Source: Candidatus Undinarchaeales archaeon | GTDB taxonomy: Archaea > SpSt-1190 > JASMDC01 | Assembly (NCBI GenBank): GCA_030753015.1 | Contig: JASMDC010000002.1 | Location: 1-64,000, forward strand | DNA length: 64,000 bases | Reading direction: 5' to 3' | Shown: one piece after another, positions 16,478-56,015 of the stretch | Numbering within the stretch: position 1 is the first letter of the stretch | Layout: every line of letters begins with the position of its first letter | Position numbers and translations under genes: made by a program | Notes under the pieces: generated by a model | Database searches by the model: none | Seen by the model: the letters and a program-made list of their open reading frames with translations, nothing else | What the model was told of the DNA's origin: nothing

Positions 16478-16493
16478 TTTATAAAGTTTTCGG
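16478..16493 (-). promoter_or_regulatory. BRE-TATA promoter (CGAAAAC TTTATAAA) upstream of tfb
   Basis: Minus strand reads cgaaaactttataaac, a consensus archaeal BRE plus TATA, ~210 nt upstream of the tfb ATG. Confidence 0.6.
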
Positions 16494-16584
16494 GACTGAA
16501 TGACCTACATCGGGCCCAGGCCACCCTTTTTCGGCTGAATTCCCTCTTTTAAATCTATACTTGAGGTGGGTCAACGGGGAACGG

Positions 16585-19500
16585 CTATGGCTTCCCGTTG
16601 TCCTTTTCCGCTTCAGTCTTGCCTTTTTCGTTCTTCCCTTCGATCTCTTCGATACGGTCGAGAACCTCGAGGATCGCAGCCAGTTTATCCTCCTCGAGCC
16701 GCTCCAGGATGGGGAGCGAGGTCCTCGGAACGGGGACGGGCGTAGGTTCTACTCCCACGACCTCGGCGATGAGCGCGGCCTCCTTCTCCTTCAGGTGACC
16801 GAGCTCCTTGATCTCTTCCCTGAATGTAAGGGCGCTCGCCGCTGCTCTTTCCGCCAGCTCGTTGAAGGTGGGCGGCCTTTCCTCGACAGGCTCTACCGGC
16901 TTGGTGACCAGCTCGGGCCTGGCCACAGCGACGGTCACGCCTTCCTCGATGACAGCGCGCCGTCCGCGCATGGACAGAGCGGACATGCCGATGGTCACGA
17001 CCATGAGGATCATCAGCGCGCCCACTAGGAGGGGGCTTCCGAGGCCCGAGGCCGTCTCGACGGTGCGACAGGCACCATCGCTGCACAGGGAGTCGAACGG
17101 GCAGCCGCAATCGGTGCAGCAGGACGACTGGTCCTCACCTTCACCGCAGATACCGTCGCCGCATACGCCCTCGGCGACGCATACGTCCGCCGTGCACAAG
17201 AGACCATCGCCGCACGAGCAATCGGAGCAGCACGTGGATGAATCCTCCCCAGCATCGCACTGGTTGTTGCCGCAGGTGCAGTCGGCCGGGCAGGTCAAGA
17301 GGTCCTCGCCGGAACCGCACACGCCGTCCCCGCAGTCCGTCTCCTCGACCAGGATGACCGGCTGGGAGAACACCGACGCGTTGACCTTGCTCAGGTCCTT
17401 GGCCACCTTGTACTCGATGACCACTTCCTCGCCGGGTTCGAGGTCGACGTACCATCCCAGGATGGGATCGTCCTTGAGGATGAAGTCCGGCGGTGGATCG
17501 AACACAAGCTGGGAGACGTCGCCAGCGATCGACTTGTCGATGGTCTCGACGATCCGCACGCCCTTCTTCGTCTCGTTCCCGTCGTTGCGGAGCTTGATGC
17601 CCACCGTTGAGCGGAAGCCCTCGTTCGTCTTCTTTACATTGAGGTCGCGCTTGACCTTCACCTCACGGCTGGCCTCGATCGATCGATCGACCATGGACTG
17701 GACCTGCTTGGCCGCCACGATCGAGCTGATGGTTTTGCCACCCGATGTACCCGACGTGGCCATCTTCGACCTGGTGACCAGAGTGGCGATGCCCGCAACC
17801 GTGCGCTTGCGCTCCTCCTTGCGGCGGGTGGCTGTGGGTGATTCCGTGCCGGTCCCCGTACCCGTTCCGGACACATCGCCCGTCCCCGTACCTGTTCCGG
17901 ACACATCGCCCGTACCGGTCCCGGTGCCGACGTCCTCCTCATACTCCTCGTCATAATCAAATGAGCGGCTGATCTCCTCTTCCACGATAATGCACTGCTG
18001 GGTGATCGTGTCGCACTCCTCATCGCCGAAGCAGCCGCAGTCGGTGCAGCAGGTCTCGCCCGGACTGCAGGTACCGTCGCCGCAGGTGGTGCAGTCCGTC
18101 GGGCATGTGAGGATCTCTCCGGCCTCGCACGTCCCGTCGCCGCAGGTCGTGGTCTGGCATATCGCGAGCACGGGATTGCACACTCCTTCACCGGGGCAGC
18201 CGCAGTCAGCACAGCAGGATGCCTGGTCCTCGTCCCCGGAGCACTCACCGTCGCCACACACTGCACAGTCGGCAGCGCAGGAGGCAGTCGTCTCGTCTAT
18301 GTCGCATGTACCGTCACCGCATATGGAAACGGGCAGGCAGATGAGGTCGCAGGCGAAGCCGTCGGGGCAGCCGCAGTCGGTACAGCAGGTGGCCGTCGTC
18401 TCGTCACCGGTGCACTGGGCGTCACCGCACACCGAGCAATCCGCGGCGCATCCTGCAAGGTCCTCGCCATCCTCGCACGTCCCGTCACCGCACACTGTGT
18501 CCGAAAGGCACAGGAGCTGGCTCGGGTCGCAGGAGGTACCGGCCGGGCAGGCGCAGTCGGTGCAGCAGGTAGCGCTGGTCTCGGCGCCGGTGCACTGGCC
18601 GTCACCGCACACCGTACAATCGCTGGGGCAGTTAATGAAGTTCTCATCACCCGTGCAGGTACCGTCGCCGCAGCTACTGAGGTCGAGCGGGCAGTCGCCG
18701 GGGCATGTGGTACTGTCCTCACCGCCCTCGCACAGGTCGTCACCGCAGATGGGGCAGGTGTCTTCATCGCGCAGGAGGCGGACGGTGACGGTAGTGTCGT
18801 TCACGAAGCTCTTTTCGTCCTCGCGCTCGAACACACCTCGTACCTGGATCTGGACGTCCGTGGTGGCGCACACGGAGTCGGTGGCAAGGGTGATGTCCTT
18901 GAGCCGGGAGTACTCGACGTGGTCCTTGAGCGTCTGCGCCTCGTCCTTGTAGATCCAGTGGGACAGGGCCGGGAGCGAGAAGCTCAGCGGGTCGGGGCGA
19001 ACACCGGTCCCCGAGACGCTCACGTCGACGTCCAGTGCCTCAACGGAGCCTTCAAGCTCGGTGAAGTTACAGGTGAGAGTCGCCGAGGTCCCCGAGGGCA
19101 GCGACAGGACAGAGCCTCCGTTGCAGGTGATATCGAAGGTAGCGTCCATGGTATAACCGCCCACAGTTCCGCCACCGCTGCTGGTGGTCGTGCTGCCGCT
19201 GGGCGTCGCACCGCCCGTGGACGTACTGCCGCTGCTGCTGCCGCCCATACCGACTGAACCGGGATAGGGCGCGTCTCCCTTGACGTGATAGCGCATGGAC
19301 GGGTACTCCCTGATGGTCGGAGCCTTCCATTCAATGTAGGCGTACTCGTCCTTGTACTCGTGCGGCACCATCCGCAGCGCGTAGACCGTGTTCTCCTTGA
19401 TCGAGGTCTCGCCCGACGTGGCCGTTGTGTTGCGCTCCCACACGTCGGTGACGTAGCTCGTTCGGTGGTCGTTCCACACCTGCATGATGATGCCCGTCAG

Positions 19501-22500
19501 GTACTTGGTTGTGAACTCCTGGGAGTTGAGGAACACCAGGTCGTGGTACTGCTCCCAGATCTCGCCGGACCTGTCAGCCTTTATTTTAACTGTCCGCGTC
19601 GTAGAGTCGATCCGTGGAGTGGGCGTGGTGTAGTTGTAGTGGAGTGTCGTTGTCGTTCGGGATCCCTGCGAGACGGCTGCAGCATCCTTGGAGGTCTGGT
19701 CCGGGGCGTAGGTGAGGTTCATGGAAACATTCGCGCTTCCGTGGTTGAACAGGTGGAACCGTTTGGTCCAGTTGAGGGTTGGTTCGTCGGTGGCAAGGCG
19801 CGTGCTCGTGAACGAGGTCGTGTTCTCCACGACCTCGATATTCTGAGCTGCCCCGCTCCTGAGCAGGATGCGCGGACGGCCGTCGGCGCGTAGCACCTTC
19901 ACCCGGTGCTCGGTGTCGTTGCCGTCCAGGAAGGTACGGAAGGTGGTCCCGATGAGATTGACCTTAGTCTCCCACGATGATGCGTCAGCGGTGTCCTTGT
20001 CCCATGAGTCTGCGAGGTCGAGGCCTGCGAGCACGGTTCCATTGACTATCTCGTCCAGCACTGTGCCGTTCACGAACACATCGAAGTTCTGCCACATGAT
20101 CTCACCCTCGGTGATGTTCGCCCGGCGGATGATGGAGAGGGTTCCGCCGGTGACCGGGGCGTTGATGCATACATATACCGGGGTCGTCTCGAACTCGTAG
20201 AACAGCTCCACGTCCGACCGGGTCGTGCGGTCCGAGATGGTCGTCTCTTTCGATGTGCTGAGGCGCTCTGAACAGTCCGCCTTGAGCGAGAGGAAGGCCT
20301 TTGTGTTCCCGGTCTCGAGGAGCGGGTGCGCCTCCCCGTGGATGAGGGCGAGGCTCACTGACTGGTCGCGGTCGAGCACCTTCGTGGTGTTGTGGATGAT
20401 GGCGAGCGCCTTGCCCTCCTTCAGCTTGGAGCTGTTGATGAAGAAGATAGTCGAATTGTCCTGGGAAGCAGGGATGTAGGCGTGGTAGGAGCGGGACACG
20501 TTCGCCACGTAGGGATCACCTGACGAGGAGGAAGTGTTCGTCTCGATGAGGGTGACGTCGTCGGGCACTGTACCCTTGATCCGGACGGTGATGTCGAAGT
20601 CCTCCTTCTCTATGCCGTCGACCACGCCGTCGGGGACCACGCGCAGGCCCTTCGTCGCGTCCTTTGTGGTCCCTTCGTACACCTGTAGATAGTAGTAGCC
20701 GCTTGCCAGCACGTCCTCGAGGTAAGTGGAGTAGGTGGGGGTCGTCCCGTTCACGGGTACGTACGAGGTCGTGCCGTTGGTGTACTCTACCGTGTAGTTG
20801 GCGTCGCCCCAGGCCGTGATCGTGTCATTGGCGTGGATGAGGTCGGCGTGCATCTTCCCGGTGACGCGCGTGACGTTGAGCTCGACGTTACTGTTGGCCG
20901 GTAGCGCGCGGGTGCGGTTCAGCACGGGTGCGGAGGTATGGCCGCCGGTGTGGGCGTGCACCACGCTCCAGGCGGTCCCGGGCAGGTAGACCGCGTAGGT
21001 CATGGGGGCCGTGGTGTCGGTGATGTTCACATATGCATCACCGGGGCCTGTTCCGTCACCCGCTAGGTCCACCGACACGGTCTTGACGTCGGGCGGTACG
21101 ACACCGAACAGTCGCGCGGTGATGGCGAGCCCGCTCTTCTCGAGCCCGTCCAGCGCCCCGTCGGGAACGAACCGACTTCCCCGGGTGACGTTGCCCTTGC
21201 TGTCGTTCACCTGGAGATAATAATAGTTGCCTGTGGTGTGGACGTCGTCGAAGTATACCGTATAAGCGCTGCCTGCCATCTGCACCGTGTCCTTACCGGC
21301 CGACAACCGGTTCATGTAATCGTCGCCTCCGTACACGGCCAGGGTCTCGTCGGATGCGGACGACACCAGATCGGTATGGAGGGTTCCGGTGAGGGTCGTG
21401 ACGTTGAACGTCGTGTCCTTGGTGATGGAGCGAGCGAGCTGCGGCGGCGTCCCTCCGGGCGGTGTTGCGGTCGTGTAGAGCAGGACGTACGCATCGGTGT
21501 CCCCGCCGAAGAAGATCACGTACGAGCTCTTGGCGTCAGGTGTCCATGGATCACCGGACGTCTGAGTGAACCCGTCCTTGGCGAGGTCCAGGGCCACTGA
21601 AGGGAATGCCGCGGGGACGACACCGGCCAGGCGCACGTCCAGGTCGACACCCGTGGCCTCTGCGCCGTCGTTGGTGCCGTCGACCGCCACACGGATGCCG
21701 CGGGTGCGGTTATTGCTGTTGGCGTCCAGGACATCGAGGTAGTAGTGGCCGCTCGCGTGGACGTCCTCGAGGTACACCGTATAGGCGCTGCTGGACACAT
21801 GGTAGGAACCGGTACCGTTGGTGAGCTCGCTGTCGTACGCTGACGAGGCATGCACCTTGACCACATCGGTGGAATTAGTCAGCTCACCGTGGACAGCGCC
21901 CGTGATGGTAGTGACGTTCAGGATGGCGTCAGCAGATAGGTTCCGGGCGCGCTGGAGAAGCGGTGCGGTGGACTGCGGGCTCGACTCGGCCCACATCCTT
22001 ACCTGGGACGTGGTGTCGGCGGGGCCGTAGAGGCGATAGGCACCCTTGACAAGCACGGCCCACGGATCGCCACCGGACGCGGTGACGCCATCGTTGGCGA
22101 GGTCGACAGCCACGGTGCGGACAGCATCGGGCACGACACCAGAGAGCCTGACGTTGAGGTCCACGTTCGAGGCGGGGATCGAGGAGGCAGCGACCCGCAG
22201 ACCGCGTGTGACGTTCCCGGTGTCGGCGTCCCGGGCGTCCAGGTAGTAATATCCGGAGGTGGTTGTGTGCTCGAAGAAGGTCCGGTATGTACCGCTCGAG
22301 TAGTGGTAGGAGGAGGTGTCTGAGGACAGCTCTTGGGTACAGTCGCCGTCAGCGTAGACGCGGACCTTGTCCTGTGAACCGCCAAGGTCGGTGTGGACGG
22401 CACCGGTGATACGGGATATATCGAGGACGACATCGCCGGCGTTCAGGGCCTTGGTGCGCTTGAGCACCTCGGTCGAGCCGCTAGTGTCCTCGTAGGCGTG

Positions 22501-34500: not shown

Positions 34501-37500
34501 GACGGTACGGACATAGTAGGTACCTCCGGTTGTGTCCTCGAACCAGATCCGGTAGTCCGGGGTACCGGCGGTCGGATTGATAGTCTCGGAGCTGACCATG
34601 CTCGCGCAGTCATTTGCGGAGTGGACCGAGATCGCGTCGTCGCCAGAGCGCAGGTCCGCGTGGACCTCGCCTTGGAGCCGGCCTACATCGATATCGGCGG
34701 TGCCTATGCTGGACGTGGACGTCTCCAGTGCGCGGGACGTGCCGTCGCAGAACACGACATAGTAAGTAATCCCGTTCTGCCCGTATATGGAATAGTCGGC
34801 ATTGGTCTGGCTCGAGTCAGTGGACGTGTCGGATGAGGCGTAGAGCTGGCCGGACGCGTCGCATGCACCTGTCCCGGGATCGGTGAGGAACACGCGGACC
34901 GTCGGATTATCGTTCGGGATATCGCCCGAGCCCTTGGCCTCGGGATCGAAGGTGACCTCCTCGCCGCGGTCCATGTCGCTCTCGGTCCTGGCGGCGGAGA
35001 GGCCGGTGGTAGCGCAGGAGGAGGCGGACGAGGAGACGGCGAGCACGACGGAGGAATCGTCCGCCGAGACCTCGTAGTACTGGTAGCCGCTATCGAAGGC
35101 TGCGCCGGTGACCGACTCGCTGGAGAGCAGGTTCCCGCTGATGGCATCGCAGGCGACGATGTAGTGGGAGCTGTCCTCGAGGTCGGTGTGGACCTTGCCG
35201 GTCGCGCTGGTGTTGACACCGCCCACGCTGAAGGTCACGTCCGTCGACGATACCGCCTTGGTGCGGACCAGGCGCTTTGTGGACCCGTCGCAGAGCGTCA
35301 TATAGTAAGTGGGGCCCTGTACGACGTATACTGCCAGGTCGTCACTGCCCGTGACGGACGAGGGGAGGGTCTGGCGGGCCTTGGTGGCATCGGACAAGCA
35401 GCCTGCGTCGGAGGTGAACACGCGCACGGTCTTCTCGGCGAGGGATGCGGGCACTTCACCATGCATCTTTGCAGTCGGTGAGAAAGTGACCGCATAGTCC
35501 GAGGATGAGGGCGTGGTGTCGAGGCTGGCCGCCACGAGGACGGAGGCCGTGCAGTCCGTACTGCTGGTGATGACCACGTCGGGAGTCCCCGAGGTCGATT
35601 CGAAGTAGAGGGCGCCGCCGCCGTTGAACGTGCTCGTGGATACCGACTCGGAGCTGAGGAGCGAACCGCCCACGTCCGAGCACGCAACTACCTTGTACGC
35701 GGCACCGGCCAGGTCGGCGTGGAGGCTGCCGGTGACCTTCGCCACGTGGAGTGCGCTATAGCCCGCAGAGCCCTCCGAGCGTGTGCGTCTGAGGAGGTTG
35801 GTGCTACCGTCGCAGAATGCGACATGGTAGGTCGTGCCCCCCTGTTCCACATAGAGCACGGTGTCGTTGGTGATCCCGAGGGGCGAAGCGTGGAGCGTGT
35901 GCTGGGCTACAAGGGCCGTCCCGCTACACCCGAGGTCCGAGGTGAACACCTTGATGGTCTTGCTGGCCAGGCTACCCGGCACCTCACCATAGAGCTTCAT
36001 ACCTGGAGAGAAGGACGCGGAGAGCGTGGCCGGCACAGTGACATCGAGCTTGGCGGCCTTTAGGTTCGTAGCAGCGCACGAGAGAGCGGACGTCGAAATG
36101 ATGACCTCTGGTGTCGCGATGCTCTCGAAGTAAACCCGGGTGCCTGCATTATACTGCGTGCCGGTCACGTCCCTGGTGGAGAGAGCGGAGCCGCCGATGC
36201 CGTTGCATGCCACCACGTGGTAACTGGCATTGGCCAGCTCCGCATGGGCCGTTCCAGTGAACTCGGCGATGCTGAAGGTGGAGTTACCGCTCGGATCGTC
36301 CGCCGCACGATTGTAGAGCTTTGTGGTGCTATCGCAGAAAGCAACGTGGTAGTTATTGCCTGTACCGTTCTGCAGGTAGACCATCATGTCGTTGGAGATC
36401 CCGGTCGGATTGGAATGGAGAGTGTTGTAGGTCACCAGATCGTTGGTGGCACCGCAGTTCTGAGTAGAGTTGAACACCTGGATCGTCTTGCCGCCCATCG
36501 AGGCAGGTACCTCGCCGGAGAACTTGGCCTGGATGGTCACGGAGTTGGCATAGTCGCTGGTGTCGATGTTGTTGTCGATCGCCGCAGCCACGACGTTGGT
36601 CGCCGCGCAGCTCGCTGCGGAACGGCCTACGACAAGGTCCGGGGTTCCAGCGATGGTGGGAGTGGCGTCGTAGTACACCGGGGATGTGTTTATTGCGCCG
36701 CCGTCAACGTCCTTCGAGCTGAGGGCCGAGCCGGCCACGTTATCACACATGGTGATGTGATACGTTGAGTTGGCGATGTCCGAGTGGAGGGTCGCCGAGA
36801 AGATACCCACGTCGAAGTCCACGTCGGCCACCGAGGAGAGGTCCTTCTGCCGCCGCAGGGAGTAGGAGTTGCTGCTGGTGCACACAGTGAAGTAGTAGGA
36901 GCGGCCGCTCTCCAGGAACAGGTCATAGTCGCCCGAGCCCGCAACGCTGGCGGCGATGGCGCCCTTCCCCCAGTACCCGCTGCTGCCGCAGGCGTATGGT
37001 TCGCCGGTGAAGGCCTTGATGTAACCGCTCCCGAGCGTCGATGGCACGTCCCCACTGACCTTGATGTCAGGGTGGAACCCGTTCAGGTAATCACTGGTGT
37101 CGATGGTGACGTCATGGACCGATGTGACCATGTTCGCCTCGGTGCAGTCAGTGGCACTACCCGAAGAGATGAAGAAGTCCGGGGTCCCCGTGGCCTCGTA
37201 GTACTGTGCTCCCGAGATGTCATACGTGCCCACGGTCACGGACTCGCTGTTCAGGGCGCTGCCATCGATGTCGCTGCAGACCACGATGTAGTCACCGCTG
37301 GTTAGCGAGTCATGGAGATTACCTGTGATACGGCCTACGTGGAGGGTGTAGGCGCCCGAGCTCCCGTGCTGCTCCGTGCGCTCCAGGAGCGTGGTGGTCC
37401 CGTCGCAGTAGTTGACGTAGTAGGTGGTGCCGCCTGACTGCATGTACACGGCGGCATCGTTGCTACCGCCCACGGGATCGGCAGGCAGTGTCCCCCGGGC

Positions 37501-40500
37501 GACCGTGGCAGCCGAGGAGCAGTCGAGATTGGATGCGTACACCTTGACGGTCTTGCTCGCAAGGGCAGCGGGCACCTCGCCATAGACCTTAGTATCGGGA
37601 TTAAAGGTCGAGACGAAGCTCGCGGGAGCGGAGACGTCCAAGCTGGCGGCCACGAGGTTTGCGGCGGCGCACGAACCAGCGGACGTGGAGATGATCAGGT
37701 CCGGAGTGCCGCCGGTGTCGGCATAGTACACCTTGGTCGATGAGTCGTACTGGGTGCCCGTGACGTCCTCGCTACTGAGGGCAGTGCCTCCGATGTCCGT
37801 GCATGCGACACCGTGATAGCTCCCCGTGGCGAGGTCCGCGTGCGCGTCACCGCCGAAGGAGGCAGCGTCCACCGATGTATCGCTGGAGGGCGTGATCTGG
37901 TACTCGAGGACCTTGGCGTCCCCGCTGGTGCACCATACAAGATAGTAGGTACTGCTGGCGGTGAGATGGACGCTCACGTCATTGTCCACAGTTACAGAGG
38001 ACACTGTCGTGTTCCTCGCTGCGAGATCGGTCGTGTCCGTGCACCCCTTGCCGGTGGACGTGAAGGCCAGGAGCTTCCCGCTGGCCAGAGCGCTGGGGAC
38101 ATCGCCGTACACCTTCGTGGCCACCGTGAAGGTATGGGTCAGGTCTCCCTCCACAGCCGCGTTGCGCTTCACTGACCTGATGTTGGTGGCAGCGCATGAG
38201 CTGCTCGAGGTCGAGATGAGGAAGTCCGGTGTTGATGTGGCGGTGGTCTCGAAGTACTGGGCCAGAGTATCGTCGTAATCGGCAGCGGTGCGCGTGAACG
38301 AGGAGATGAGGTTGCCGCCCACATCATCGCACACGAGCATGTACAGCGAGGCGGAGTCCAGGTCGGCGTGGAGGTCACCGGACACCTCACCGACCTCGAG
38401 GTTCACGTCACCTCCGGCCGAGGGCGACTTGGTGGTCATTAAGAGCTTGGCGTTGGGACCCGAGGACTTGCAGAACGAGATGTACACCGAGGTCCCGGAC
38501 TGGACGTATACACGGTAGTCGTCGGTGTCCTCGTTCACATTGGTGTCGACGGTGCCCTTAGCGATCCAGGGCGTCATGCTGCACCCCGTGCCTGAGTTAG
38601 TGGTTGCGGTCACCAGCACCGTGCCGGCCCCGAATGTCCCGGTAAGGTCGCCCGTGTACTTGACGTTCGGCTGGAGCTCGTTGACATAGTCGGATGTGTC
38701 CAGCGTCACGTCCAGGATGGCGGCGACCACGTTCGCCTGGGCGCAGCTGCCGGATGACGAGGTGATGACGAGGTCGGGCGTGCCAGTGGACTGGAAGTAC
38801 ACGTAGGTGCTGCCGCCGTCGTATGTCTGAGCGTTGGTGTTAACGGTGTTGAGGGCAGAGCCGCCCAGGTCACTGCACGCGGCGATGTAGTTTGACGTCG
38901 TGGCAAGATCGTTGTGGATGTCCCCGTGGATCCCCTGGATGCTGAAACTGACGCTCTCTCCCGCATCGTCGATGGTCGCGCTCCCGTAGTAGACCTTGGT
39001 GCTGCTCTCACAAGCGTAGAGGTACCGGGCCGATGCATCCGGTAGCAGGTAGACGGAGTACGTACCATAGCTCCCACCGCTGACGACCGTGGCCGAGTTC
39101 ACCACGGATGCCCCGCAGGCGTCTCCGGTCCCGGTGTGGACCTCGATGGTGTCGCCCACGAGGGAGGTGGGGACATTGCCTGTCAGAACGGCCACGTTCC
39201 ATTCCGTGTCCGAGCTCACCGTCTTCTGTTCTTCGAGCACCGGTGATGTGTGGGTGGCGTCCGTGTCGGCCTTGAGGTACATGGGCGTCGTACCATCGTG
39301 ATAGAAGCGGTACTTATACCCGCTGCCGGTGTTCGTGATGGCGCCACGGTAGAGCGTGTCGTCCGTCTCGTCGGCCTCGTCGTCCATCCACACCGAACCG
39401 GACGTTGTAATGGCTGTAGGGACCTGGCCGTACGTCAGGATGTCGAGGTCCACGGTCGTGGTAGTCCCATTGCCCGACGAGAAGAACACGTACCCGACAT
39501 AGACCTTCGTCGACACGGTGGACGTCGTGCGCAGGTAGTACTTACCGTCGGTGGCGTTGGAACGGAAGTAGGCCGTGTAATCATCACCCCCGCTGCTCGT
39601 GATGCTCTGGGTCGCTGTGTCGACTTGTGCTGTCGCCGCCAGGTCGTCGAACACGTCCACGACACCCGCTGTCTCCAGCTCGCTGTGCGCCTCGCCCTTC
39701 ACGGCCGCCACGTTGACGGTCACCGTGTTCGCCTCCTTGCTGGTGTGGGTCTCGATGATGTGGAGCGCCTCGGTGCCACCGTCGCAATAGTAGATATGGT
39801 ATATCCCGTTGGAGCTCTCGTCGATGGTGACCGAATAGTCGTTGCCTGAGCCGTTTTCGGCCGGTTCGGTGACGTAACCTATAGCGTCGCTGTGGCACTT
39901 GCTGGTAGCCGTCGAGTTGCAGGGCGTATCCGCAGCAGAGCTGAATATGCACACGGCGTCGTTGGAGCTGGTGCTACCTTCGAGTGTCGTGGGGAGCTCG
40001 CCCTGGATGGTATCGTCCTGGGGTACTAGGAGGAACTGGCGATAGATCCGGAAGGTCATGTCCTTTGCAGAATCGGCGGTCCAGGCGGACCCACCGTCGG
40101 TGCTGCCTACATATGTCCCGTCAGAGTATGCGTTCGAGTCCGCCTTGGAGATGAGGTAGCTGTTGTCGGCGTCGGCAGAGACGGGCGAGTAGGCCATCAG
40201 CGCGTAATCCACGCCCGTTGAGAGCTGGGTGAGGTTGTTACCGATGTATACAATGAAGTGGGGATTCTGCTTGTCCGTGAACGAATCTTGGCCCCATCCT
40301 GAACCGGTGTCCCTGGACTTGTCACCCCGGGTGTAACAAGTGGTATCACTGAATCCGCATGCAGAGTGCCATCGGTACTCGTGACTAGAATCACAGCTAT
40401 CAGCTTCTAGGACGATAGCATACAGATGGCCTGCGCGTACCACCGTCGGTGTATCGAACTCGAAATCTACCTCAGTGAAAGCGCTTGCACTGTAATCCCC

Positions 40501-41628
40501 GATGTTCGCGTCGTCCAATGATTTTGAGGTAAGAGCGGTCCCAGTGGGCATACCATTCGAATCGGCATTCCAGATCGAAACGTTCAAGGGAGACTCGCAA
40601 TGCGTGTCATAATGGGTGACCGTGAGACGCACTTTCGTGAGGTTGCCCGTGCGGCCCGGTTTGAAAGCTTGGGCGTACTTGCTGTTCGTGTAGATGTCAA
40701 TACCACCAGCCCCTGCGGGGGGTGTCGTGGACGTGGCGAGGGGATCCTTCTCGGTCACGTCCAGACGAGAGACCTCCCAAGCGCTCGAGGTATCGACGTC
40801 CCCCGGGAGGACCGGGAGACCGGCAGCGATGAATGTACCGCTGGGTTTGCCAGCGGTCACGCTCTGGATCTCGAAAGCGAGGTTGCCGACAGGTGTACCT
40901 GTCTTCTTCACATGGAAGCTCATGCGGGACAGGTCGGCCGTCTCGTCCATGCGGAATATCTGTGAGAACCAGTTGTCCCCGTGCACTGCGACGGTAGTAT
41001 CGGCTGTGGTCTGGCTTGCAGCAACGATGTTCTCACGCGTCTTCTCAAGGTATACCTTGATCGCCATGTCATCGTCGGCTGCAGCACCCCAGTTCCATGA
41101 GGTCCCCAAACCCCTGGTGACCATGTTACCACCACTGTAGGGATCCGTCTCGTCCTGGTAACAGATCATATACTCGGTGCTGATATCGCCCCGGGAGCTG
41201 CGGTAGATGACGATGGCGTACTTAACGTCCTCGCTGACCTCGGCCAGGTCGGAGGAGAAATCGACCTCGACCCATGCCTCAGATCCGGAACATGTATAGT
41301 CGAGGGTGATGGCCGGGAAGTCCGAGTATGTCACGGTCGCCGTGGAAAGGATAGTCTCCGTTGGATAATTGGTCTCCGCGTCCACGCTCCGTATCTGTAC
41401 CGTGAGGTCCTGCCATGAGCCAAGTCCGCTGTTCCTTGCCCCCTTCAAGTAGATCTTGGTGACGTTACCCGTGATGGTCGGTGTGAATAGCATAGATCGA
41501 TCGTTCCTCTTGTCCACACCAATGGCGGCATCGGCCGATGTCTGCTGGACGTCGAGCTGTTCGGCGCTAACAAGGCAGAACACGAGCCCAAGGACGAGGA
41601 GAGCGCTGAGGACTAGTCGGTCCGTCAT
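16585..41628 (-). CDS. Giant (8347 aa) modular cell-surface protein/adhesin
   Basis: Uninterrupted 25-kb ORF with GGGAGG RBS. Architecture: N-terminal signal peptide, three related N-terminal beta domains, dozens of ~80-aa repeat modules, Cys-rich CGDGxC repeats, C-terminal TM helix (LLVGALMILMVVTIGMSAL) and a charged tail. Confidence 0.93.
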   Translation of the reverse strand: MTDRLVLSALLVLGLVFCLVSAEQLDVQQTSADAAIGVDKRNDRSMLFTPTITGNVTKIYLKGARNSGLGSWQDLTVQIRSVDAETNYPTETILSTATVTYSDFPAITLDYTCSGSEAWVEVDFSSDLAEVSEDVKYAIVIYRSSRGDISTEYMICYQDETDPYSGGNMVTRGLGTSWNWGAAADDDMAIKVYLEKTRENIVAASQTTADTTVAVHGDNWFSQIFRMDETADLSRMSFHVKKTGTPVGNLAFEIQSVTAGKPSGTFIAAGLPVLPGDVDTSSAWEVSRLDVTEKDPLATSTTPPAGAGGIDIYTNSKYAQAFKPGRTGNLTKVRLTVTHYDTHCESPLNVSIWNADSNGMPTGTALTSKSLDDANIGDYSASAFTEVDFEFDTPTVVRAGHLYAIVLEADSCDSSHEYRWHSACGFSDTTCYTRGDKSRDTGSGWGQDSFTDKQNPHFIVYIGNNLTQLSTGVDYALMAYSPVSADADNSYLISKADSNAYSDGTYVGSTDGGSAWTADSAKDMTFRIYRQFLLVPQDDTIQGELPTTLEGSTSSNDAVCIFSSAADTPCNSTATSKCHSDAIGYVTEPAENGSGNDYSVTIDESSNGIYHIYYCDGGTEALHIIETHTSKEANTVTVNVAAVKGEAHSELETAGVVDVFDDLAATAQVDTATQSITSSGGDDYTAYFRSNATDGKYYLRTTSTVSTKVYVGYVFFSSGNGTTTTVDLDILTYGQVPTAITTSGSVWMDDEADETDDTLYRGAITNTGSGYKYRFYHDGTTPMYLKADTDATHTSPVLEEQKTVSSDTEWNVAVLTGNVPTSLVGDTIEVHTGTGDACGASVVNSATVVSGGSYGTYSVYLLPDASARYLYACESSTKVYYGSATIDDAGESVSFSIQGIHGDIHNDLATTSNYIAACSDLGGSALNTVNTNAQTYDGGSTYVYFQSTGTPDLVITSSSGSCAQANVVAAILDVTLDTSDYVNELQPNVKYTGDLTGTFGAGTVLVTATTNSGTGCSMTPWIAKGTVDTNVNEDTDDYRVYVQSGTSVYISFCKSSGPNAKLLMTTKSPSAGGDVNLEVGEVSGDLHADLDSASLYMLVCDDVGGNLISSFTRTAADYDDTLAQYFETTATSTPDFLISTSSSSCAATNIRSVKRNAAVEGDLTHTFTVATKVYGDVPSALASGKLLAFTSTGKGCTDTTDLAARNTTVSSVTVDNDVSVHLTASSTYYLVWCTSGDAKVLEYQITPSSDTSVDAASFGGDAHADLATGSYHGVACTDIGGTALSSEDVTGTQYDSSTKVYYADTGGTPDLIISTSAGSCAAANLVAASLDVSAPASFVSTFNPDTKVYGEVPAALASKTVKVYASNLDCSSAATVARGTLPADPVGGSNDAAVYMQSGGTTYYVNYCDGTTTLLERTEQHGSSGAYTLHVGRITGNLHDSLTSGDYIVVCSDIDGSALNSESVTVGTYDISGAQYYEATGTPDFFISSGSATDCTEANMVTSVHDVTIDTSDYLNGFHPDIKVSGDVPSTLGSGYIKAFTGEPYACGSSGYWGKGAIAASVAGSGDYDLFLESGRSYYFTVCTSSNSYSLRRQKDLSSVADVDFDVGIFSATLHSDIANSTYHITMCDNVAGSALSSKDVDGGAINTSPVYYDATPTIAGTPDLVVGRSAASCAATNVVAAAIDNNIDTSDYANSVTIQAKFSGEVPASMGGKTIQVFNSTQNCGATNDLVTYNTLHSNPTGISNDMMVYLQNGTGNNYHVAFCDSTTKLYNRAADDPSGNSTFSIAEFTGTAHAELANASYHVVACNGIGGSALSTRDVTGTQYNAGTRVYFESIATPEVIISTSALSCAATNLKAAKLDVTVPATLSASFSPGMKLYGEVPGSLASKTIKVFTSDLGCSGTALVAQHTLHASPLGITNDTVLYVEQGGTTYHVAFCDGSTNLLRRTRSEGSAGYSALHVAKVTGSLHADLAGAAYKVVACSDVGGSLLSSESVSTSTFNGGGALYFESTSGTPDVVITSSTDCTASVLVAASLDTTPSSSDYAVTFSPTAKMHGEVPASLAEKTVRVFTSDAGCLSDATKARQTLPSSVTGSDDLAVYVVQGPTYYMTLCDGSTKRLVRTKAVSSTDVTFSVGGVNTSATGKVHTDLEDSSHYIVACDAISGNLLSSESVTGAAFDSGYQYYEVSADDSSVVLAVSSSASSCATTGLSAARTESDMDRGEEVTFDPEAKGSGDIPNDNPTVRVFLTDPGTGACDASGQLYASSDTSTDSSQTNADYSIYGQNGITYYVVFCDGTSRALETSTSSIGTADIDVGRLQGEVHADLRSGDDAISVHSANDCASMVSSETINPTAGTPDYRIWFEDTTGGTYYVRTVVDSTYTQCGHAFTLTSQAKVQNTEGKVSGTVPSGVLRAGLDYDSNGDDAWTTSFSSSAYRLYGDSADTSVLVHAYEDTGGSTEVLERTRNINSGDKTFDVAKVTAGEALHDDLDDADDHLVVCTLPGGSVLASEDITGTSYEGGNTLYFDATSQTTVYFGSSSASLDCTGSTLLTATKQTSVSAGGHYRYIPKYKLTGDVPTGVDRALLFSAIGKGCSDVDGDMAGYDGTLVEGQSDNDYDLYVNKTDGSTFRLVFCNGGTRRLQSVAQSSISAAVDVDVARVASGGASKVHDDLNSQFIVACTAPDGVVLTSESVTGTSYEGGSTYQYFEVTQSTAYFVVSGSASSCSATGLSAGIKLSVAGGSDYTFAPEAKGAGDIPEGNPSVRMFVDDPGTGACGGSQIYVSSDSTTDSSQINADYAVYGQNGATYYVVFCNGTTKALETSTTSIGTADIDVGRLHGEVHADLRTGSNDVIEVHNTIGCASAVSSETVNPTSAAPDYYIWFEDTGSPFYVRTSVDSGQYVQCGHAFTLTAQASTQDLETLAAGTMPSGVLRVGLDYDSNGDDTWTTTFQSSAFKLFGDNADSAVLVHAYEDTGGSTEVLERTRDLTAGDRTFDVARITTPQNIHDDLDDTSDYVVACSAPGGSALVSESINGATFEGGSGNGDVLYVDVTGISDMYLAITSSSLSCTGTNIITATKQSSLSGGSGYAYTPLYKVTGDVPSGPTYAKLFAAASKGCTDVDADLRGYDGSMTTAQTANDYDLYVNKTDSSTFYAVFCDGSNNRLFEASGRTVSGATTIHLGKVAGETHTDLEDSGTADNVEVFSDSSCTSEVSRHDIQPAASGGDDYTVYFETTVSTFYLKATKDAGANAQCGLGFTLTSQAAAVQLNTKASGTVPSTVTSVGIDYGKTGSDDLVSKGSLSGSYALYGDSVQTSLDVHVYDSGGEVLESPKSLAIDFVLDVAKVKSSGPIHGDLADGNHYALACKSPGSTKLNSKVVSGLNFNDGDTDLYFEKDGSQVFFTISTASDGCQVTAINSTTPQSSVTGGTTYYYTPSRRFSGKIPLGPTHVRLFSTSGQSCTTGGLNFRGYDGGVSHGTSSDYTLYTNETTSETFYVLFCDWSNTLLLESAGKSVPDDLALSLARVGGTVHSDLTSKNIVACSAIGDSGTRISSASVSGTQFNGGTYQYYEPSGSSVYFAVSSSSSSCASSDLSAAVSTTVAAGDTDTFTATDKATGDITANNPTVRMFIGNPDTSACQSSGQSYVSSDTSTDSSQSNADYAVYGHDGQSYYMVFCEGSTVLYESALITDVATADIDIARVHTSGVNKVHADIKGSTSVVICSAVGDSGASISTTELAASSYDNGGTSYMYFEVPGSGDVYFALSTSGTSCASSNLRAGIKRSVTPGATVTFDPTGKLKGDIPSDDPSVRVFTEDPGSSACLASGQDYIAADTSTDYTQSDADYAVYGQDGDTYYIVYCDGTSKGVQTSVSTLAQAGTDLDVGKVSGNAHSSLETPGDGNDRVDVYSDSTCTTKVSSETVQPNDGNNPDYSVLFMDTTGGTYYIKTTVVASGKTYDACGTPFTLTSQTKTDHHLTARVSGTVPIDVPHIGLDYDDNGDETYTTTLQDQVYMLFGDAADTQVRVHAYEDINGTTEVLERIKSLAGGTVGFDVAKVRALEAAIHDDLDDSGDHVVVCTAPGGSTLVSEDITGTAFEGVSGDILYFDATSLSEAYLTISSGALDCSATNLATATRLASPTGGSGYQFTPLYKVTGDIPAGISYVKLFSSVSQACTAASTTLRGYDGALLTGQSANDYDLYVNKTEGTTLYAVFCDASNVRLFEASSRTVSGNLALHIGKISGEAHSDLENAGTADNVEVFTGATCTSEVSRHDTQPTENGSGVDYTVWFESTGASPFYVKVTKDTGANVQCGHSVSLTSQAATVPLHGKVAGSVQTDVLKMGLDHDRDGTDEVRTSSTLSGAYAIYGDGSDSQVDVHAYLTGDVEALERLNDLTSAVTFNIARLTAETHTHLDDDGSILVYATSTCTEARSASTDASDSGGADVTVYFDSTGASTFYLKAATSTNSTCGNAISPDGNREATADLTGAITGTVHTDITVVSVDLDEGGGAEGSTSVVSGGYALYTNGSDTSLTVSFNTTGGTVLSRTGKNLSGAAGKNLDVDAGRLTGDVHTDLRTGGNDVVEVYDDSTCASKVSSATVNPTAATPDYTIYFEDTGSNFYIKTSVDSTYVQCGHLFTLTSQAKVVDLTARVAGTVPGAINRIGLDQSRNGNDEAWTTTFSSGGYKLFGDAADASVDVHAYEDTSGATEVLERTRALTALDVAFDIVSIAAGGALHDDLDDASDHVVACSLPGGAALTSEDITGTAYEGGDTLYVDTTDVTDIYLTVTGSSYSCASSDLVTVTKQSSVTAGGTYGYRPLYKVTGDIPSSIDGTRLFTANGKACSDVDGTFAGYDSVIDSGQSANDYDLYVNATNSATFYVVYCTGSTRILESTSRSSISGNVAISVARISSGGSDKVSNDLNSANVLVCTAPGGTRISSEAVTGSSFDGGSTYQYFETSDGTVYAVLSGTTTSCASSDLQAGTKLTSITGGGSYTFSPSVFQSGDIPNDNPTVRLFIDDPGSGACGGSQAYVASDTSTDSGQSGLDYKVYGQDGETYYMVFCNGTDRVLEVSTSSLAAADIDVGRLQGEVHADLRTGSNDVIEVHDASSCGSAVSTETVNPAAGTPDYLVWFKDTGGPFYIRSSVDSTYVQCGHQFTLSAQAKVQDLETRIAGTVHADVLRMGLDYTTDGDDTWTTTFSSGAYKLFGDAADASVQVHAFTDTSGSTEVLERGKALTTDVTLNVGRLTGDTHGDLETGGNDIIEVHDASTCASGVSSATVNPSDAASPDYTIFFEDADGTLYIKTSVDGTYTQCGHAFTTTSRAKVQALTARVEGSVHSDVLRMGLDYAADADDTWTTSFSSGAYKLFGDATDTSVQIHAFTDTSGSTEVLERGKSLASDVTFNVGRLTGDTHGDLETGANDVIEVHDASTCTSAVSSATVNPSDGASPDYTIFFEDADGTLYIKTSVDGTYTQCGHAFTTTSRTKAQPLTAKVAGTVHADVLRIGLDYSTDGDDSWTTTFSSGAYRLFGDVADTSVLVHAYSDTSGSTEVLERGKSLASDVTFNVGRLTGDAHSDLETGGNDVVEVHDTSTCVSTVSSATVNPSDAASPDYTIFFEDAGGTLYVKTSMDGTYVQCGHAFTTTSRAGLQPLTAEISGTVPSDIKRIGLDYATDGDDVWTTTFSSSAYKLFGDATDTSVLAHAYEDTGGATEVLERSKSLAGVDVVFDISLVRALEDAIHADLDDTAHHIVACSVPGGSALVSEDITGQAFEGVTIGDRLYIDMSGISQLYLGVSTAALDCTATKLNTTTLLTGLQAGNSYQYTPLHKVTGDIPAGVSYVKLFATAGQACTAAGTTLRGYDGLPDASPSANDYDLYVNRTEGQDVYVVFCDGSDARLFESTAKSGITGDLAVHLGKVSGETHSDLEDTGTADNVEVFTENSCTTEVSRHDVQPTASAGTDYTVWFESPGPSAFDLKSTKDAVVTQCGPGFTLSSQAATVELDGKASGTVHSDITRVGLDYAKDGTDNLWTTSTLSGSYAVYGDANYSPLYVHAYITGNVEVLEREKSITSDAVMNIARIASGGSGSVHDDLDSAKVIVCTAPDGSVLSTRDVAGSQYDAGSAHQYFEVTQATAFALVSSSTTSCTSADLRAGIKLTSLAGGQGLTFSPAVKGSGDLPADEPTVRVFLDDPGTGACGSGQAYLSSDTDTDPSQSDADYDVYGQNGVTYYLVFCNGTDRVLERSTSSLGSADIDVGRLQGEVHADLRNGGNDLIEVHTATACASAASTETVNPSLSTGPDYIIWFEDSGSTLYVKTSVDSATYVQCGHAFTTTAQAKVQDLETRVAGTVHADVKRMGLDYDSDGDDTWTTTLPSSLYRLYGDKIDVSVLTHAYEDTSGSTEVLKRTKALNAGDVVLDISRITGAVHTDLGGSQDKVRVYADGDCTQELSSDTSSYHYSSGTYRTFFEHTTTSGYYYLDARDADTGNVTRGLRVAASSIPASNVDLNVRLSGVVPDAVRTVAVDLANDGVTASGGDPWAVLVKGAYRLYGPADTTSQVRMWAESSPQSTAPLLQRARNLSADAILNVTTITGAVHGELTNSTDVVKVHASSAYDSELTNGTGSYHVSSSAYTVYLEDVHASGHYYLDVLDANSNNRTRGIRVAVDGTNDGAEATGVDLDVRLAGVVPAAFPSVALDLAKDGFTQTSGDPWTPDAKSSYVIFFGGDTDAYVLLYTTATPPGGTPPQLARSITKDTTFNVTTLTGTLHTDLVSSASDETLAVYGGDDYMNRLSAGKDTVQMAGSAYTVYFDDVHTTGNYYYLQVNDSKGNVTRGSRFVPDGALDGLEKSGLAITARLFGVVPPDVKTVSVDLAGDGTGPGDAYVNITDTTAPMTYAVYLPGTAWSVVHAHTGGHTSAPVLNRTRALPANSNVELNVTRVTGKMHADLIHANDTITAWGDANYTVEYTNGTTSYVPVNGTTPTYSTYLEDVLASGYYYLQVYEGTTKDATKGLRVVPDGVVDGIEKEDFDITVRIKGTVPDDVTLIETNTSSSSGDPYVANVSRSYHAYIPASQDNSTIFFINSSKLKEGKALAIIHNTTKVLDRDQSVSLALIHGEAHPLLETGNTKAFLSLKADCSERLSTSKETTISDRTTRSDVELFYEFETTPVYVCINAPVTGGTLSIIRRANITEGEIMWQNFDVFVNGTVLDEIVNGTVLAGLDLADSWDKDTADASSWETKVNLIGTTFRTFLDGNDTEHRVKVLRADGRPRILLRSGAAQNIEVVENTTSFTSTRLATDEPTLNWTKRFHLFNHGSANVSMNLTYAPDQTSKDAAAVSQGSRTTTTLHYNYTTPTPRIDSTTRTVKIKADRSGEIWEQYHDLVFLNSQEFTTKYLTGIIMQVWNDHRTSYVTDVWERNTTATSGETSIKENTVYALRMVPHEYKDEYAYIEWKAPTIREYPSMRYHVKGDAPYPGSVGMGGSSSGSTSTGGATPSGSTTTSSGGGTVGGYTMDATFDITCNGGSVLSLPSGTSATLTCNFTELEGSVEALDVDVSVSGTGVRPDPLSFSLPALSHWIYKDEAQTLKDHVEYSRLKDITLATDSVCATTDVQIQVRGVFEREDEKSFVNDTTVTVRLLRDEDTCPICGDDLCEGGEDSTTCPGDCPLDLSSCGDGTCTGDENFINCPSDCTVCGDGQCTGAETSATCCTDCACPAGTSCDPSQLLCLSDTVCGDGTCEDGEDLAGCAADCSVCGDAQCTGDETTATCCTDCGCPDGFACDLICLPVSICGDGTCDIDETTASCAADCAVCGDGECSGDEDQASCCADCGCPGEGVCNPVLAICQTTTCGDGTCEAGEILTCPTDCTTCGDGTCSPGETCCTDCGCFGDEECDTITQQCIIVEEEISRSFDYDEEYEEDVGTGTGTGDVSGTGTGTGDVSGTGTGTGTESPTATRRKEERKRTVAGIATLVTRSKMATSGTSGGKTISSIVAAKQVQSMVDRSIEASREVKVKRDLNVKKTNEGFRSTVGIKLRNDGNETKKGVRIVETIDKSIAGDVSQLVFDPPPDFILKDDPILGWYVDLEPGEEVVIEYKVAKDLSKVNASVFSQPVILVEETDCGDGVCGSGEDLLTCPADCTCGNNQCDAGEDSSTCCSDCSCGDGLLCTADVCVAEGVCGDGICGEGEDQSSCCTDCGCPFDSLCSDGACRTVETASGLGSPLLVGALMILMVVTIGMSALSMRGRRAVIEEGVTVAVARPELVTKPVEPVEERPPTFNELAERAAASALTFREEIKELGHLKEKEAALIAEVVGVEPTPVPVPRTSLPILERLEEDKLAAILEVLDRIEEIEGKNEKGKTEAEKDNGKP
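17060..17342 (-). repeat. Cys-rich CGDGxC / CCxDCxC repeats, membrane-proximal block
   Basis: DCGDGVC...TCGNNQC...CCSDCSC...VCGDGIC...CCTDCGC. Confidence 0.85.
17846..17930 (-). repeat. 30-nt tandem repeat encoding GTGTGTGDVS linker
   Basis: gtccccgtacc(c/t)gttccggacacatcgccc occurs twice, plus a partial copy. Confidence 0.85.
17990..18760 (-). repeat. Cys-rich CGD(G)xC repeats, nine copies, mostly in pairs
   Basis: Alternating CGDGTC...CxxDC and CGDGxC...CCxDCxC...C units. Confidence 0.9.
24500..26160 (-). repeat. Near-identical 483-nt (161-aa) tandem repeats inside the giant gene
   Basis: acgttga recurs at 24965, 25448 and 25931; cctcggtgga recurs at 25011 and 25494. Unit: GRLTGDTHGDLETG...TEVLERGKSLASDVTFNV. 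Confidence 0.9.
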
Positions 41629-41630: not shown

Positions 41631-42224
41631 TTATCCCTCCCTTCCGACGCGGGCCAGAAGCTCGGACTTACGGTCGAAGAACTCGGCGATGAACATATCC
41701 CTTGGGAAGGTCCAGTCCCAGTCCAGTGGATTCTGCGCGGGGATGATCCCCAGCACATTGAACCGCTCGGGCTCGGTAGTCCAGATCACGTCGATATTGT
41801 TCTCGCGGGCTGTCACGGCAAGGATGCAGTCCTGGATGGCCGATCCGATCAGTCCCTTCTCCTTGGCGATGTAGAGCGCCTTCATAATCGTCATCTGCGA
41901 GGGGGCGACGAGGGTGAGGGTCTGGCTCTTCCATAGGGCCTCGATCCGCTCGTACACCGCGTCCGTGGGGGCAGCGACCTCCATGAGTCGGGGATCGGTG
42001 AGCGCGGCGTAGAACTCGGCGAGGCTCTGGGTGGACACGTAGCCATTGATAAGACCTTGGAGCACGGAGATGGTGATGGCCAGGCTCTTGTTGTAGTGGG
42101 GCGTGTCGGCCATCTCTGAGTACACCCAGATGCCCGTATCGATGAGCACCTTCTTGTCGGCGAACTCGCACTTGTTCACGGACACGCCGTTCACGCGGAT
42201 GCTACTCGGGTCCGTACAGATCAC
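41631..42224 (-). CDS. PIN-domain (VapC-like) ribonuclease toxin
   Basis: VLIDTGIWVY...STQSLAEFY...IQDCILAVTA...IWTTEPERF PIN pattern. Start uncertain (GTG 42224, 42194 or 42179). Confidence 0.85.
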   Translation of the reverse strand: MICTDPSSIRVNGVSVNKCEFADKKVLIDTGIWVYSEMADTPHYNKSLAITISVLQGLINGYVSTQSLAEFYAALTDPRLMEVAAPTDAVYERIEALWKSQTLTLVAPSQMTIMKALYIAKEKGLIGSAIQDCILAVTARENNIDVIWTTEPERFNVLGIIPAQNPLDWDWTFPRDMFIAEFFDRKSELLARVGREG

Positions 42225-42441
42225 CTCGCTTGAACCCCTCTTTCGGTCTTGACGAGAGGGGTGCCTTCAGCACACCCTCGATGTAGGACCGTTCAGGGGT
42301 TGTGTCCCGTACGACGACCGCAGTGAAGGAGGCCTCGCCGGTCACGGTCACCTCTATCTTCATCCCGTCGCGCAATCCGAGCTTTTCCCTGATGTTGCGT
42401 GGGATGTAGAGTTTGCTGTGATGGAAAGTTGCAATAGCCAT
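42202..42441 (-). CDS. AbrB/MazE/SpoVT-family antitoxin
   Basis: KLYIPRNIREKLGLRDGMKIEV swapped-hairpin motif, directly upstream of the PIN gene. Confidence 0.88.
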   Translation of the reverse strand: MAIATFHHSKLYIPRNIREKLGLRDGMKIEVTVTGEASFTAVVVRDTTPERSYIEGVLKAPLSSRPKEGFKRGDLYGPE

Positions 42442-42469
42442 CAATCTGCCCCAATAACTATAGTACGTT

Positions 42470-56012: not shown

Positions 56013-56015
56013 GAG

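Follow-up and report, generated by a model that had tools for sequence, protein, structure and literature searches.

Introduction

Very large genes are reported to be scarce in archaea (10.1101/2023.11.21.568195). The SPEARE-type giants of Nanohaloarchaeota, SVXNc_0300 (9,409 amino acids, aa) and BNXNv_0298 (8,880 aa), are described with a cytoplasmic VirB4/TraG ATPase and with another ATPase gene downstream of their own; they have been interpreted as secretion channels (PMC10266531). Among bacteria, the grappling hook protein GhpA of Aureispira (5,898 aa) is described as a heptamer with 52 Ig-like repeats, secreted by the type IX secretion system (T9SS) (10.1101/2024.01.29.577165). NOMO is a type I membrane protein whose twelve tandem domains, arranged in a loop, are given a length of 27 nm (10.1101/2024.09.06.611727). 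In this study, we analyzed a stretch of 64,000 nucleotides from a Candidatus Undinarchaeales archaeon (contig JASMDC010000002.1, positions 1 to 64,000; hereafter the window). On its minus strand (16585..41628), a single open reading frame (ORF) encodes a protein of 8,347 aa, a size close to the maximum of 9,409 aa described for proteins of cultured archaea (PMC10266531).

We interpret the protein, with a probability of about 0.53, as a stalked surface adhesin, in which a membrane-anchored, linkerless stalk presents fast-evolving, choice-of-anchor-R-like tip domains. The design of tip, tandem-sandwich stalk and anchor is already known, as is the fold, and this well-known overall design limits the surprise. 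What sets the protein apart is its unusual size and the di-domain repeat of its stalk, which the domain libraries searched do not name. The repeat is common to at least 40 surface proteins from DPANN archaea and probable bacteria of the candidate phyla radiation (CPR), and it yields a profile that can be built and a small, well-predicted unit for studies of structure and mechanics. For an Undinarchaeota lineage with genomes of 3.6–3.8 Mb, the protein also offers a specific marker of the cell surface and a hypothesis on contact that can be tested. No description of the giant protein or the repeat was found in the literature searched, mostly the main texts of open-access papers.

Results

Conservation and assembly of the gene

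The frame is uninterrupted, with its sole stop codon at the end. In the sister species of the same genus (G001), the orthologue is intact and colinear; it is 8,349 aa long, 86.6% identical and lies on a 605-kb contig with the same flanking genes. Their alignment contains 20 gap columns in 8,357, and the number and order of the repeat modules are the same in both species. In a third lineage, the module order matches from module 65 onward. The ratio of non-synonymous to synonymous substitution rates (dN/dS) against the sister is 0.118 for the whole gene and 0.07–0.11 for the modules; the stalk is under strong purifying selection.

Repetitive genes invite the suspicion that their length arose during assembly by repeat expansion or a misjoin. 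Among the runs compared, which include no long reads, no single contig spans the stretch. P0009, a piece of 163 aa, and P0006, which starts at Met360, share one longest-contig figure, so that a single assembly may be broken somewhere from aa 163 to 360. P0007, a piece of the sister protein covering aa 1–6676, is out of frame past aa 6676. The window itself contains local errors. Nevertheless, the orthologue and its conserved neighbours argue against an artefact, as do pieces from other assemblies that cover most of the length: P0006 (99.9% identical over aa 360–7003), P0002 (99.9% identical over aa 5987–8347) and, from the sister, P0007 (aa 1–6676) and P0008 (aa 1718–8346 at 87.9%). Three DNA runs that stem from other studies and are not marked as possible sources fill 30 of 30 bins of 15000–29500 with no insertion or deletion; reads were compared over this interval, and 29500–41628 is supported by the other assemblies instead. 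Moreover, the closest repeats within the gene are just 84% identical in DNA. An artefact is therefore largely refuted and, in our estimate, extremely improbable; the long ORF is genuine, as the first-pass annotation of the window had assumed.

Two local flaws were identified, neither of which alters the reading frame. At 23702–23763, two independent runs and P0006 agree against the window on five C>A or G>T substitutions, which are probably errors of this assembly. The Gly/Thr linker near the C-terminus has two repeat units in the window versus five in P0002. It appears to be collapsed here, and the native protein is probably 30 aa longer. Apparent contig joints at 17296–18576, 27607–27852 and 27913–26473 were rejected as repeat artefacts, their sides being 20–39 letters long and inside repeats. 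One RNA run (X20) yielded short contigs in 14 of the 30 bins, which is not proof of transcription because the library may contain DNA.

Overall architecture

The hydropathy plot of the whole protein has only two hydrophobic peaks, at aa 1–27 and aa 8193–8220. These predict type I topology, with an N-terminal signal peptide and a single C-terminal membrane helix, and agree with the surface location proposed initially. From the N-terminus, the protein appears to consist of three related tip domains (aa 23–538), 78 modules, a C-terminal base and a predicted cytoplasmic tail. The base contains 12 Cys-rich repeats of the form CG[DN]xxC and a domain (aa 7497–7622) common to three paralogues. Paralogues at C76:12003-15638 and C47:31971-35621 share the 850-aa base at 42% identity (over ~800 aa) and have other N-terminal parts, so that a common base seems to carry different arms. 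N-glycosylation sequons number 29 per 1000 aa in modules 69–78 versus 4.5 in modules 19–68. No enzyme domain was found along the protein in Pfam and NCBIfam scans, and the 127-aa tail matched neither library.

Tip domains evolve faster than the stalk

The first tip domain, N1, is the fastest-changing part of the protein, with 53% identity to the sister and 0.38 non-synonymous substitutions per site (dN). The corresponding values are 66% and 0.27 for N3, and 77–100% and 0.05–0.07 for the modules. The rate of change of the tips is four to six times that of the stalk. N3 matches the choice-of-anchor R family (NF041539) over profile positions 10–146 of 155 with 23.2 bits (E 5e-5), below the cut-off of 30, and N1 gave no match to this family in the NCBIfam scan. 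A relative found with a tip profile (P0010) passes the cut-off (33 versus 30 bits). The second domain, N2, appears to be split, with N3 inserted into it. The second part of N2 (N2b) matches the last third of the tip profile with 30.7 bits, compared with 11.4 for the best of 40 control pieces, and the first part (N2a) matches the first half of the profile with 11.6 bits, on par with that control. N3 also matches phrog_877 (E 2e-9), which stands for unnamed phage proteins. At 0.95–0.96, the Atlas neighbours of the tips are phage clusters without a name; among named clusters, Lectin_like (0.89), DUF4082 (0.88) and PHR (0.86) come nearest and are leads only. The tip domains were found in no other ORF of the genome. 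A function for the choice-of-anchor R family was not found in the literature searched.

The stalk is built from duplicated H–P di-domains

Segmentation by hand gave 78 modules of 72–101 aa (aa 539–7264, 81% of the protein), comprising 38 H and 40 P modules. Automatic segmentation with profiles gave 77, classing module 4 as H rather than P and missing module 78. In both, H and P alternate strictly from module 5 on. The first-pass annotation had described modules beginning G-x-x-H-x-D-L that alternate with modules beginning G-[DT]-[VI]-P; the alternation stands, and the motifs are looser than described. The strict H-x-D-L start occurs in 28 of the 38 H modules, although the His of the motif is present in 37. 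Among the 40 P modules, 17 have strict G-[DT]-[VI]-P, 30 have G-x-x-P and seven have G-x-x-H.

Exactly two Cys occur in 53 of the 78 modules, as claimed for most of them, and 23 have none. The statement that many modules carry DxDxxGxD was too strong, as the strict pattern occurs in six of 78 (mean 0.39 and maximum 3 in 200 shuffles). A looser acidic-loop pattern, defined after inspection of the sequences, occurs in 16 modules, each of which is one of the 19 P modules without Cys. Since the loop is restricted to these modules, loop and disulfide look like alternatives, with the loop replacing the Cys pair. The N modules within modules 19–68, for example, are Cys-free and carry the loop. Of the stabilizing features proposed at first, possible Ca loops are present in a minority of modules.

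Trees of the H and P modules provided the type labels E, K, M, O and T (H) and F, L, N, P and U (P). The five module types named at first exist and recur in higher-order blocks, and the string for modules 5–78 reads EFEFEFEFEFEFEF KLMNOP KLMNOP MNOP KL KLMNOP MNMNMNOP KLMNMNMNMNOP MN KLMN TUTUTUTU ZY. Mean identity is 31% among H and 30% among P modules versus 21% for shuffled sequences, with pairs reaching 91%; this similarity is not chance. In all 37 of 37 pairs, the P type that follows is determined by the H type, whereas the P type leaves 1.06 bits of uncertainty on the next H. A label-free test gave the same picture: H–H identity correlates with the identity of the following P modules (Spearman 0.64, a value reached in 0 of 5000 permutations) and far less with that of the preceding ones (0.17; 4 of 5000). 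The unit of duplication is an H–P di-domain of ~173 aa.

Although the mean H–P identity of 23% is barely above the shuffled 21%, the H and P profiles are related (HHalign 92.5%, E 4.8e-7, 57 columns), so that the modules are diverged copies of one domain rather than several distinct elements. Because H fixes the next P, identities correlate with the following P, and H and P are related, a staged history follows: a single domain gave the H–P di-domain, then blocks such as KLMNOP and, recently, the MN run. The "grammar" of higher-order repeats noted at the outset is present and consists in nested tandem duplication of the di-domain. Copies 2 and 3 of the MN run (modules 53–60) are 84.3% identical within the window genome and 86.1% within G001 versus 79–81% to their orthologues, a hint of gene conversion.

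Predicted fold and junctions of the modules

No named repeat family was detected above cut-off, in agreement with the first-pass annotation. None of the 78 modules passed a Pfam gathering cut-off (one PF13715 match at E 0.094), and the modules were left unnamed by NCBIfam (protein in pieces), Pfam (two halves) and PHROGs (hexamer). A PDB sequence search with the pair profile returned 0 matches at E 10, and the Atlas gave no name (best value 0.77). AlphaFold models were computed with the protein's own repeats as input alignments. The predicted local distance difference test score (pLDDT) and predicted template modelling score (pTM) were 91.2 and 0.85 for modules 27–28, and 91.1 and 0.81 for the hexamer of modules 25–30, indicating a well-defined domain–domain geometry in the models, in line with the first-pass annotation. 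Each module is predicted to be a seven-stranded β-sandwich. In the hexamer model, every module boundary has at most ~4 non-strand residues, and a strand at residues 335–343 is continuous across a P-to-H boundary.

Structural matches obtained with VIA-align, each covering one module, had Z of 5–7.8 and root-mean-square deviations (rmsd) of 2.3–3.3. The best was rhamnogalacturonan lyase (Z 7.8, rmsd 2.6, 75 aligned), along with AglB (3waj; Z 7.5, rmsd 2.7, 69 aligned), pyrogallol transhydroxylase (Z 7.4, rmsd 2.3, 73 aligned), NOMO (Z 7.1, rmsd 2.9, 80 aligned), TTR-52 (Z 7.0), the TTR-like domain of carboxypeptidase D (Z 6.8), and SdrD, SpaA and BcpA (Z 6.1–6.3). Superposition on NOMO, carboxypeptidase D, SdrD and TTR-52 gave rmsd 2.3–3.0 over 65–81 residues. 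Domains of SlaB, SdrD and EbpC match an H module in one search and a P module in another. We take these matches, including NOMO, TTR-52, carboxypeptidase D and the CnaB pilins, to represent one transthyretin/prealbumin-like fold. A fold class of this kind, which is a familiar one, is supported for the modeled modules. Two homologues have a CarboxypepD_reg domain, just under cut-off, immediately after the array (P0018, E 4e-7; P0020, E 9e-5). For several targets with eight strands, the additional strand aligns with the neighbouring module (e.g., 2j71, model residues 262–398, rmsd 2.9), which suggests that neighbouring modules overlap and pack.

Distribution of the repeat and its host

A pair-profile search of 1.84 billion representatives gave 44 clusters. 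Removal of two pieces of the protein itself, a sister fragment (P0036) and three chance matches, and addition of P0004, left 39 other proteins (P0003–P0005 and, in part, P0011–P0048). The weak profile matches P0047, P0049 and P0050, presumably animal scavenger-receptor proteins, contain no module and were dropped. The 39 proteins carry 1–26 modules, and H and P alternate in 364 of 404 directly adjacent pairs. Their arrays begin right after the signal peptide, commonly with P-H-H-P-H-P, and in the 17 proteins scanned are usually followed by FN3 and Big domains, or in two by the CarboxypepD_reg-like domain. None has the C-terminal base of the window protein.

Some members come from other DPANN archaea, including a 3,915-aa Aenigmarchaeota protein with 18 modules (G145/L132). 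Another (L114) adjoins an archaeal PGF-pre-PGF gene, whereas L113 is probably bacterial and CPR, judging from its GC content and neighbours. Among genomes, the repeat occurs sporadically, in two of 301 of the phylum centred on an Aenigmatarchaeota record and in two of 301 centred on Micrarchaeia; G380, which is identical with G001, was counted once. It was found in none of 301 (phylum of G045) or 31 (phylum of G041) genomes, nor in 24 further archaea or ten single-genome look-ups, although incomplete genomes do not show absence. In the host class, it is present in two of 17 genomes and was not found in the other 15 (72–94% complete), whose incompleteness likewise precludes a statement of absence.

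The host genome is 3.8 Mb; the two genomes of the host family measure 3.6–3.8 Mb, as against 0.6–1.2 Mb for the other 15 of the class. From oxygen-deficient zones, Zhang et al. described DPANN genomes of 4 Mb that bear the label SpSt-1190 although they branch outside that group, and proposed a free-living lifestyle (PMC10936187). We infer that the host belongs to the same lineage. For the small-genome orders, Ig-domain and LamG proteins have been proposed for contact (PMC7414124). Of the 23 sequencing runs listed, 14 contain at least half of the sequence words; after removal of seven possible sources, five studies remain, with runs labelled marine or seawater, save one labelled only metagenome.

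Neighbouring genes and feature coordinates

The coordinates of the protein parts and of the genes before it are listed in Table 1. The PIN-domain gene ends 2 nt before the ATG of the giant gene, with the same spacing in G001, where it is 92% identical and starts with ATG (ACG at the same place in the window). The AbrB/MazE-like gene overlaps the PIN gene and is also conserved in G001 (C1, ~223900–224800 for the region), and two palindromes lie upstream of it (~42455–42507). Because the two genes precede the giant gene with a 2-nt gap in both species, co-transcription with this VapBC-like pair is likely, with the AbrB/MazE-like gene likely the first gene of the operon. A sigma-70 promoter scan is not meaningful for an archaeal promoter. 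The gene downstream presumably encodes TFB, and no secretion ATPase was found near the giant gene.

Toxin–antitoxin-type or small regulator genes lie upstream of family members in four of six lineages inspected, the host genus being counted once. A winged-helix gene, a HepT-like fragment and an S-layer gene precede the G128 member (L131:16408-19892), and other members follow a helix-turn-helix gene (L114:1790-2203) or a Fic gene (L113:1987-3126). Elsewhere in the window, 671–1003 (minus strand) encodes an MC1 non-histone chromosomal protein (Pfam E 3e-26), and 14205–15179 (minus strand) a membrane-anchored protein that combines an Ig-like part with short Cys repeats (83% in G001). At 51330–63850, six tandem GCS2-family ligase genes are accompanied by two carbon–nitrogen hydrolases, an amidohydrolase, one further GCS2 gene and a gene for a RimK-like ATP-grasp protein. 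When viral contigs were scanned with TrpRS, there was no match.

Table 1 Coordinates of the giant gene, its predicted parts and the two genes preceding it in the window.
Feature	Position	Strand	Remarks
Whole gene	16585..41628	-	8,347 aa, 873 kDa, isoelectric point 4.3
Predicted signal peptide, aa 1–22	41563..41628	-	Hydropathy peak aa 1–27; cleavage site by eye
Tip domain N1, aa 23–197	41038..41562	-	Choice-of-anchor-R-like; aligns with N3 at 25–30%
Tip domains N2 (aa 198–289 and 467–538) and N3 (aa 290–466)	40015..41037	-	N2 apparently split by N3
Modules 1–4, aa 539–892	38953..40014	-	Sole irregular stretch of the alternation
Modules 5–18, seven EF di-domains	35227..38952	-	Cys pair in each module
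Modules 19–68, KL, MN and OP di-domains in higher-order blocks	22420..35226	-	
Modules 53–60, four MN di-domains	24481..26412	-	Youngest run; DNA identity 66–84%
Modules 69–78, Cys-poor di-domains	19837..22419	-	Membrane-proximal; many N-glycosylation sequons
C-terminal base	16969..19251	-	Ser/Gly linker, shared domain, Cys-rich repeats, Gly/Thr linker, beta-rich domain, membrane helix
Gly/Thr linker	17842-17931	-	Inside the C-terminal base
Predicted membrane helix	16969-17046	-	Hydropathy
Predicted cytoplasmic tail	16588..16968	-	127 aa, charged
PIN-domain gene	41631..42224	-	Pfam PIN 24.8 bits, cut-off 23.6
AbrB/MazE-like gene	42202..42441	-	79 aa; MazE_antitoxin E 0.002, below cut-off

Discussion

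We propose the following scheme for the stalked adhesin. The protein would be exported by Sec and held by its single C-terminal membrane helix. The 78 sandwich modules, having no linkers, would form a likely stiff, straight rod that carries three rapidly evolving domains, probably for ligand binding, at the end away from the cell. Disulfides would form extracellularly within each module, the acidic loop of the Cys-free modules may bind Ca2+ or another cation, and the conserved H-x-D-L cap possibly locks each junction. The tips may bind to particles or to other cells through a glycan or a protein. The timing of expression of the 25-kb gene would be set by its co-transcription with the AbrB–PIN pair. 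A function in adhesion or cell–cell contact had been suggested by the first-pass annotation, which did not include the tips; it is these domains that best support it, and we still infer the function.

Several observations weigh against this interpretation. The dN/dS of the tips (0.23–0.27) is raised yet below 1, and dS is near saturation, so that relaxed constraint accounts for their change as well as an arms race does. With a recognition value of 1971, the tips fall short of the level from which a high Atlas score counts as strong evidence. None of the 39 other family members has the tips; the repeat therefore does not need them. The best Z of the two structural searches were 6.5 and 7.8, below the value of 8 under which, according to the tool, a match may mean only a common arrangement; common descent with transthyretin/prealbumin-like domains is accordingly not proven. 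Foldseek TM scores were at most 0.35 in one search and 0.15 in another, made with the hexamer. Two-module alignments with the pilins 6fwv and 3kpt exceeded rmsd 20, which means that the junction geometry differs from theirs. The rod length of 180–270 nm, at the low end of the several hundred nm proposed earlier, is an estimate from 78 modules of 2.3 nm (NOMO) to 3.5 nm each, and the straightness of the rod is presumed. Finally, the genome contains 109 open frames of at least 1000 aa (559 kb), 64 of them with more than 3% Cys, which fit a general coat equally well.

Such a coat is the basis of the main rival, a passive spacer or bristle in a disulfide-braced layer that would keep viruses, small epibionts and grazers off, with the tips as caps or decoys. 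Beyond the Cys-rich frames, it could explain why the C-terminal base recurs in the paralogues on C76 and C47, why an S-layer gene precedes the G128 member at a distance of two small genes and why the tips have look-alikes in phage proteins, and it would suit the free-living lifestyle proposed for the 4-Mb DPANN of oxygen-deficient zones (PMC10936187). However, the uniqueness of the tips in the genome and their rapid change relative to the stalk speak against it, and a single-copy 25-kb gene is a costly route to a uniform coat. The S-layer profiles PF05123 and PF05124 also gave no match in the giant protein, while the same library finds PF05124 in the G128 neighbour. We consider this account possible, though on the unlikely side. 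A more specific form of the adhesin, in which a DPANN archaeon with a large, biosynthetically rich genome, from a phylum known for tiny symbionts, catches partner or prey cells with a 200-nm capture appendage, is doubtful. It would combine a tripled DPANN/CPR repeat, swappable tips, control by a toxin–antitoxin operon, a His-Asp-capped, linkerless two-domain rod, and disulfide and calcium loop as interchangeable braces.

Module number and order, the same in the sister and, from module 65, in the third lineage despite repeats up to 84% identical in DNA, could instead be kept by the register of a self-associating filament, whose chains would bundle side by side, as in GhpA, or zip between cells. 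GhpA, with its 52 Ig-like disulfide repeats, is reported to bundle as a heptamer (10.1101/2024.01.29.577165), and its fragments top the Foldseek list for the hexamer (E 1e-8). But that match has TM 0.08 and rmsd 40 and reflects only repeated sandwiches, full-length family members range from 10 to 26 modules, and no oligomerizing coiled coil was seen; self-association is rather improbable. Less probable still is that the repeats themselves serve as a binding array for polysaccharides or metal ions, through conserved His, Asp and Tyr, to harvest particles, polymers or trace metals. The H-motif His is kept in 97% of the protein's own and 76% of homologous H modules, Tyr columns are occupied in 79–91% of homologous modules, and the structural matches include CBM41, CBM26 and CBM20 (with Z of 7.3, 7.3 and 5.9, respectively). 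Nonetheless, the CBM matches share the fold alone (6–7% identity), the conserved Tyr are in strand positions typical of a core, and the His is at a domain junction, in a short helix of the AlphaFold model.

Comparison with known systems

CnaB domains of pilins and adhesins contain a Lys–Asn isopeptide bond formed with a catalytic acid. Judged from conservation columns only, a first-strand Lys is present in 21% of the protein's own H modules, and the last-strand Asn is not conserved. What the modules have in common with NOMO, CarboxypepD_reg (PF13620/PF13715) and CnaB (SdrD, pilins) is the predicted seven-stranded sandwich of 72–101 aa (Z 5–7.8). NOMO is in addition a type I membrane protein with tandem domains, as predicted for the giant protein. 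In contrast to all three, the giant protein has two strictly alternating sub-types in 78 copies, an H-x-D-L helical cap, an internal disulfide or acidic loop, and non-pilin junctions. No module exceeds a sequence cut-off, including those of PF13620 and PF13715 (0 of 78).

With the SPEARE-type giants, the protein shares a DPANN host, a length of 8–9 thousand aa, acidity, a signal peptide and a giant, membrane-anchored ectodomain of tandem β domains with its anchor at the C-terminus. It differs in that no domain was found in its 127-aa tail, its downstream gene reads as TFB, and no secretion ATPase was found nearby. The likeness to GhpA lies in an N-terminal adhesin-like tip, a long disulfide-containing stem of slightly varying sandwiches and a C-terminal anchor. 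Given a TM of 0.08 to the model, it is an analogy of design only. A T9SS C-terminal sorting domain had no Pfam or NCBIfam match in the giant protein, which has a membrane helix there instead. From the choice-of-anchor R family (NF041539), the tips are set apart by the below-cut-off score of N3 and by the presence of three copies, one apparently nested in another. The giant protein works like other tip–stalk–anchor surface proteins but belongs to neither the SPEARE-type nor the GhpA family.

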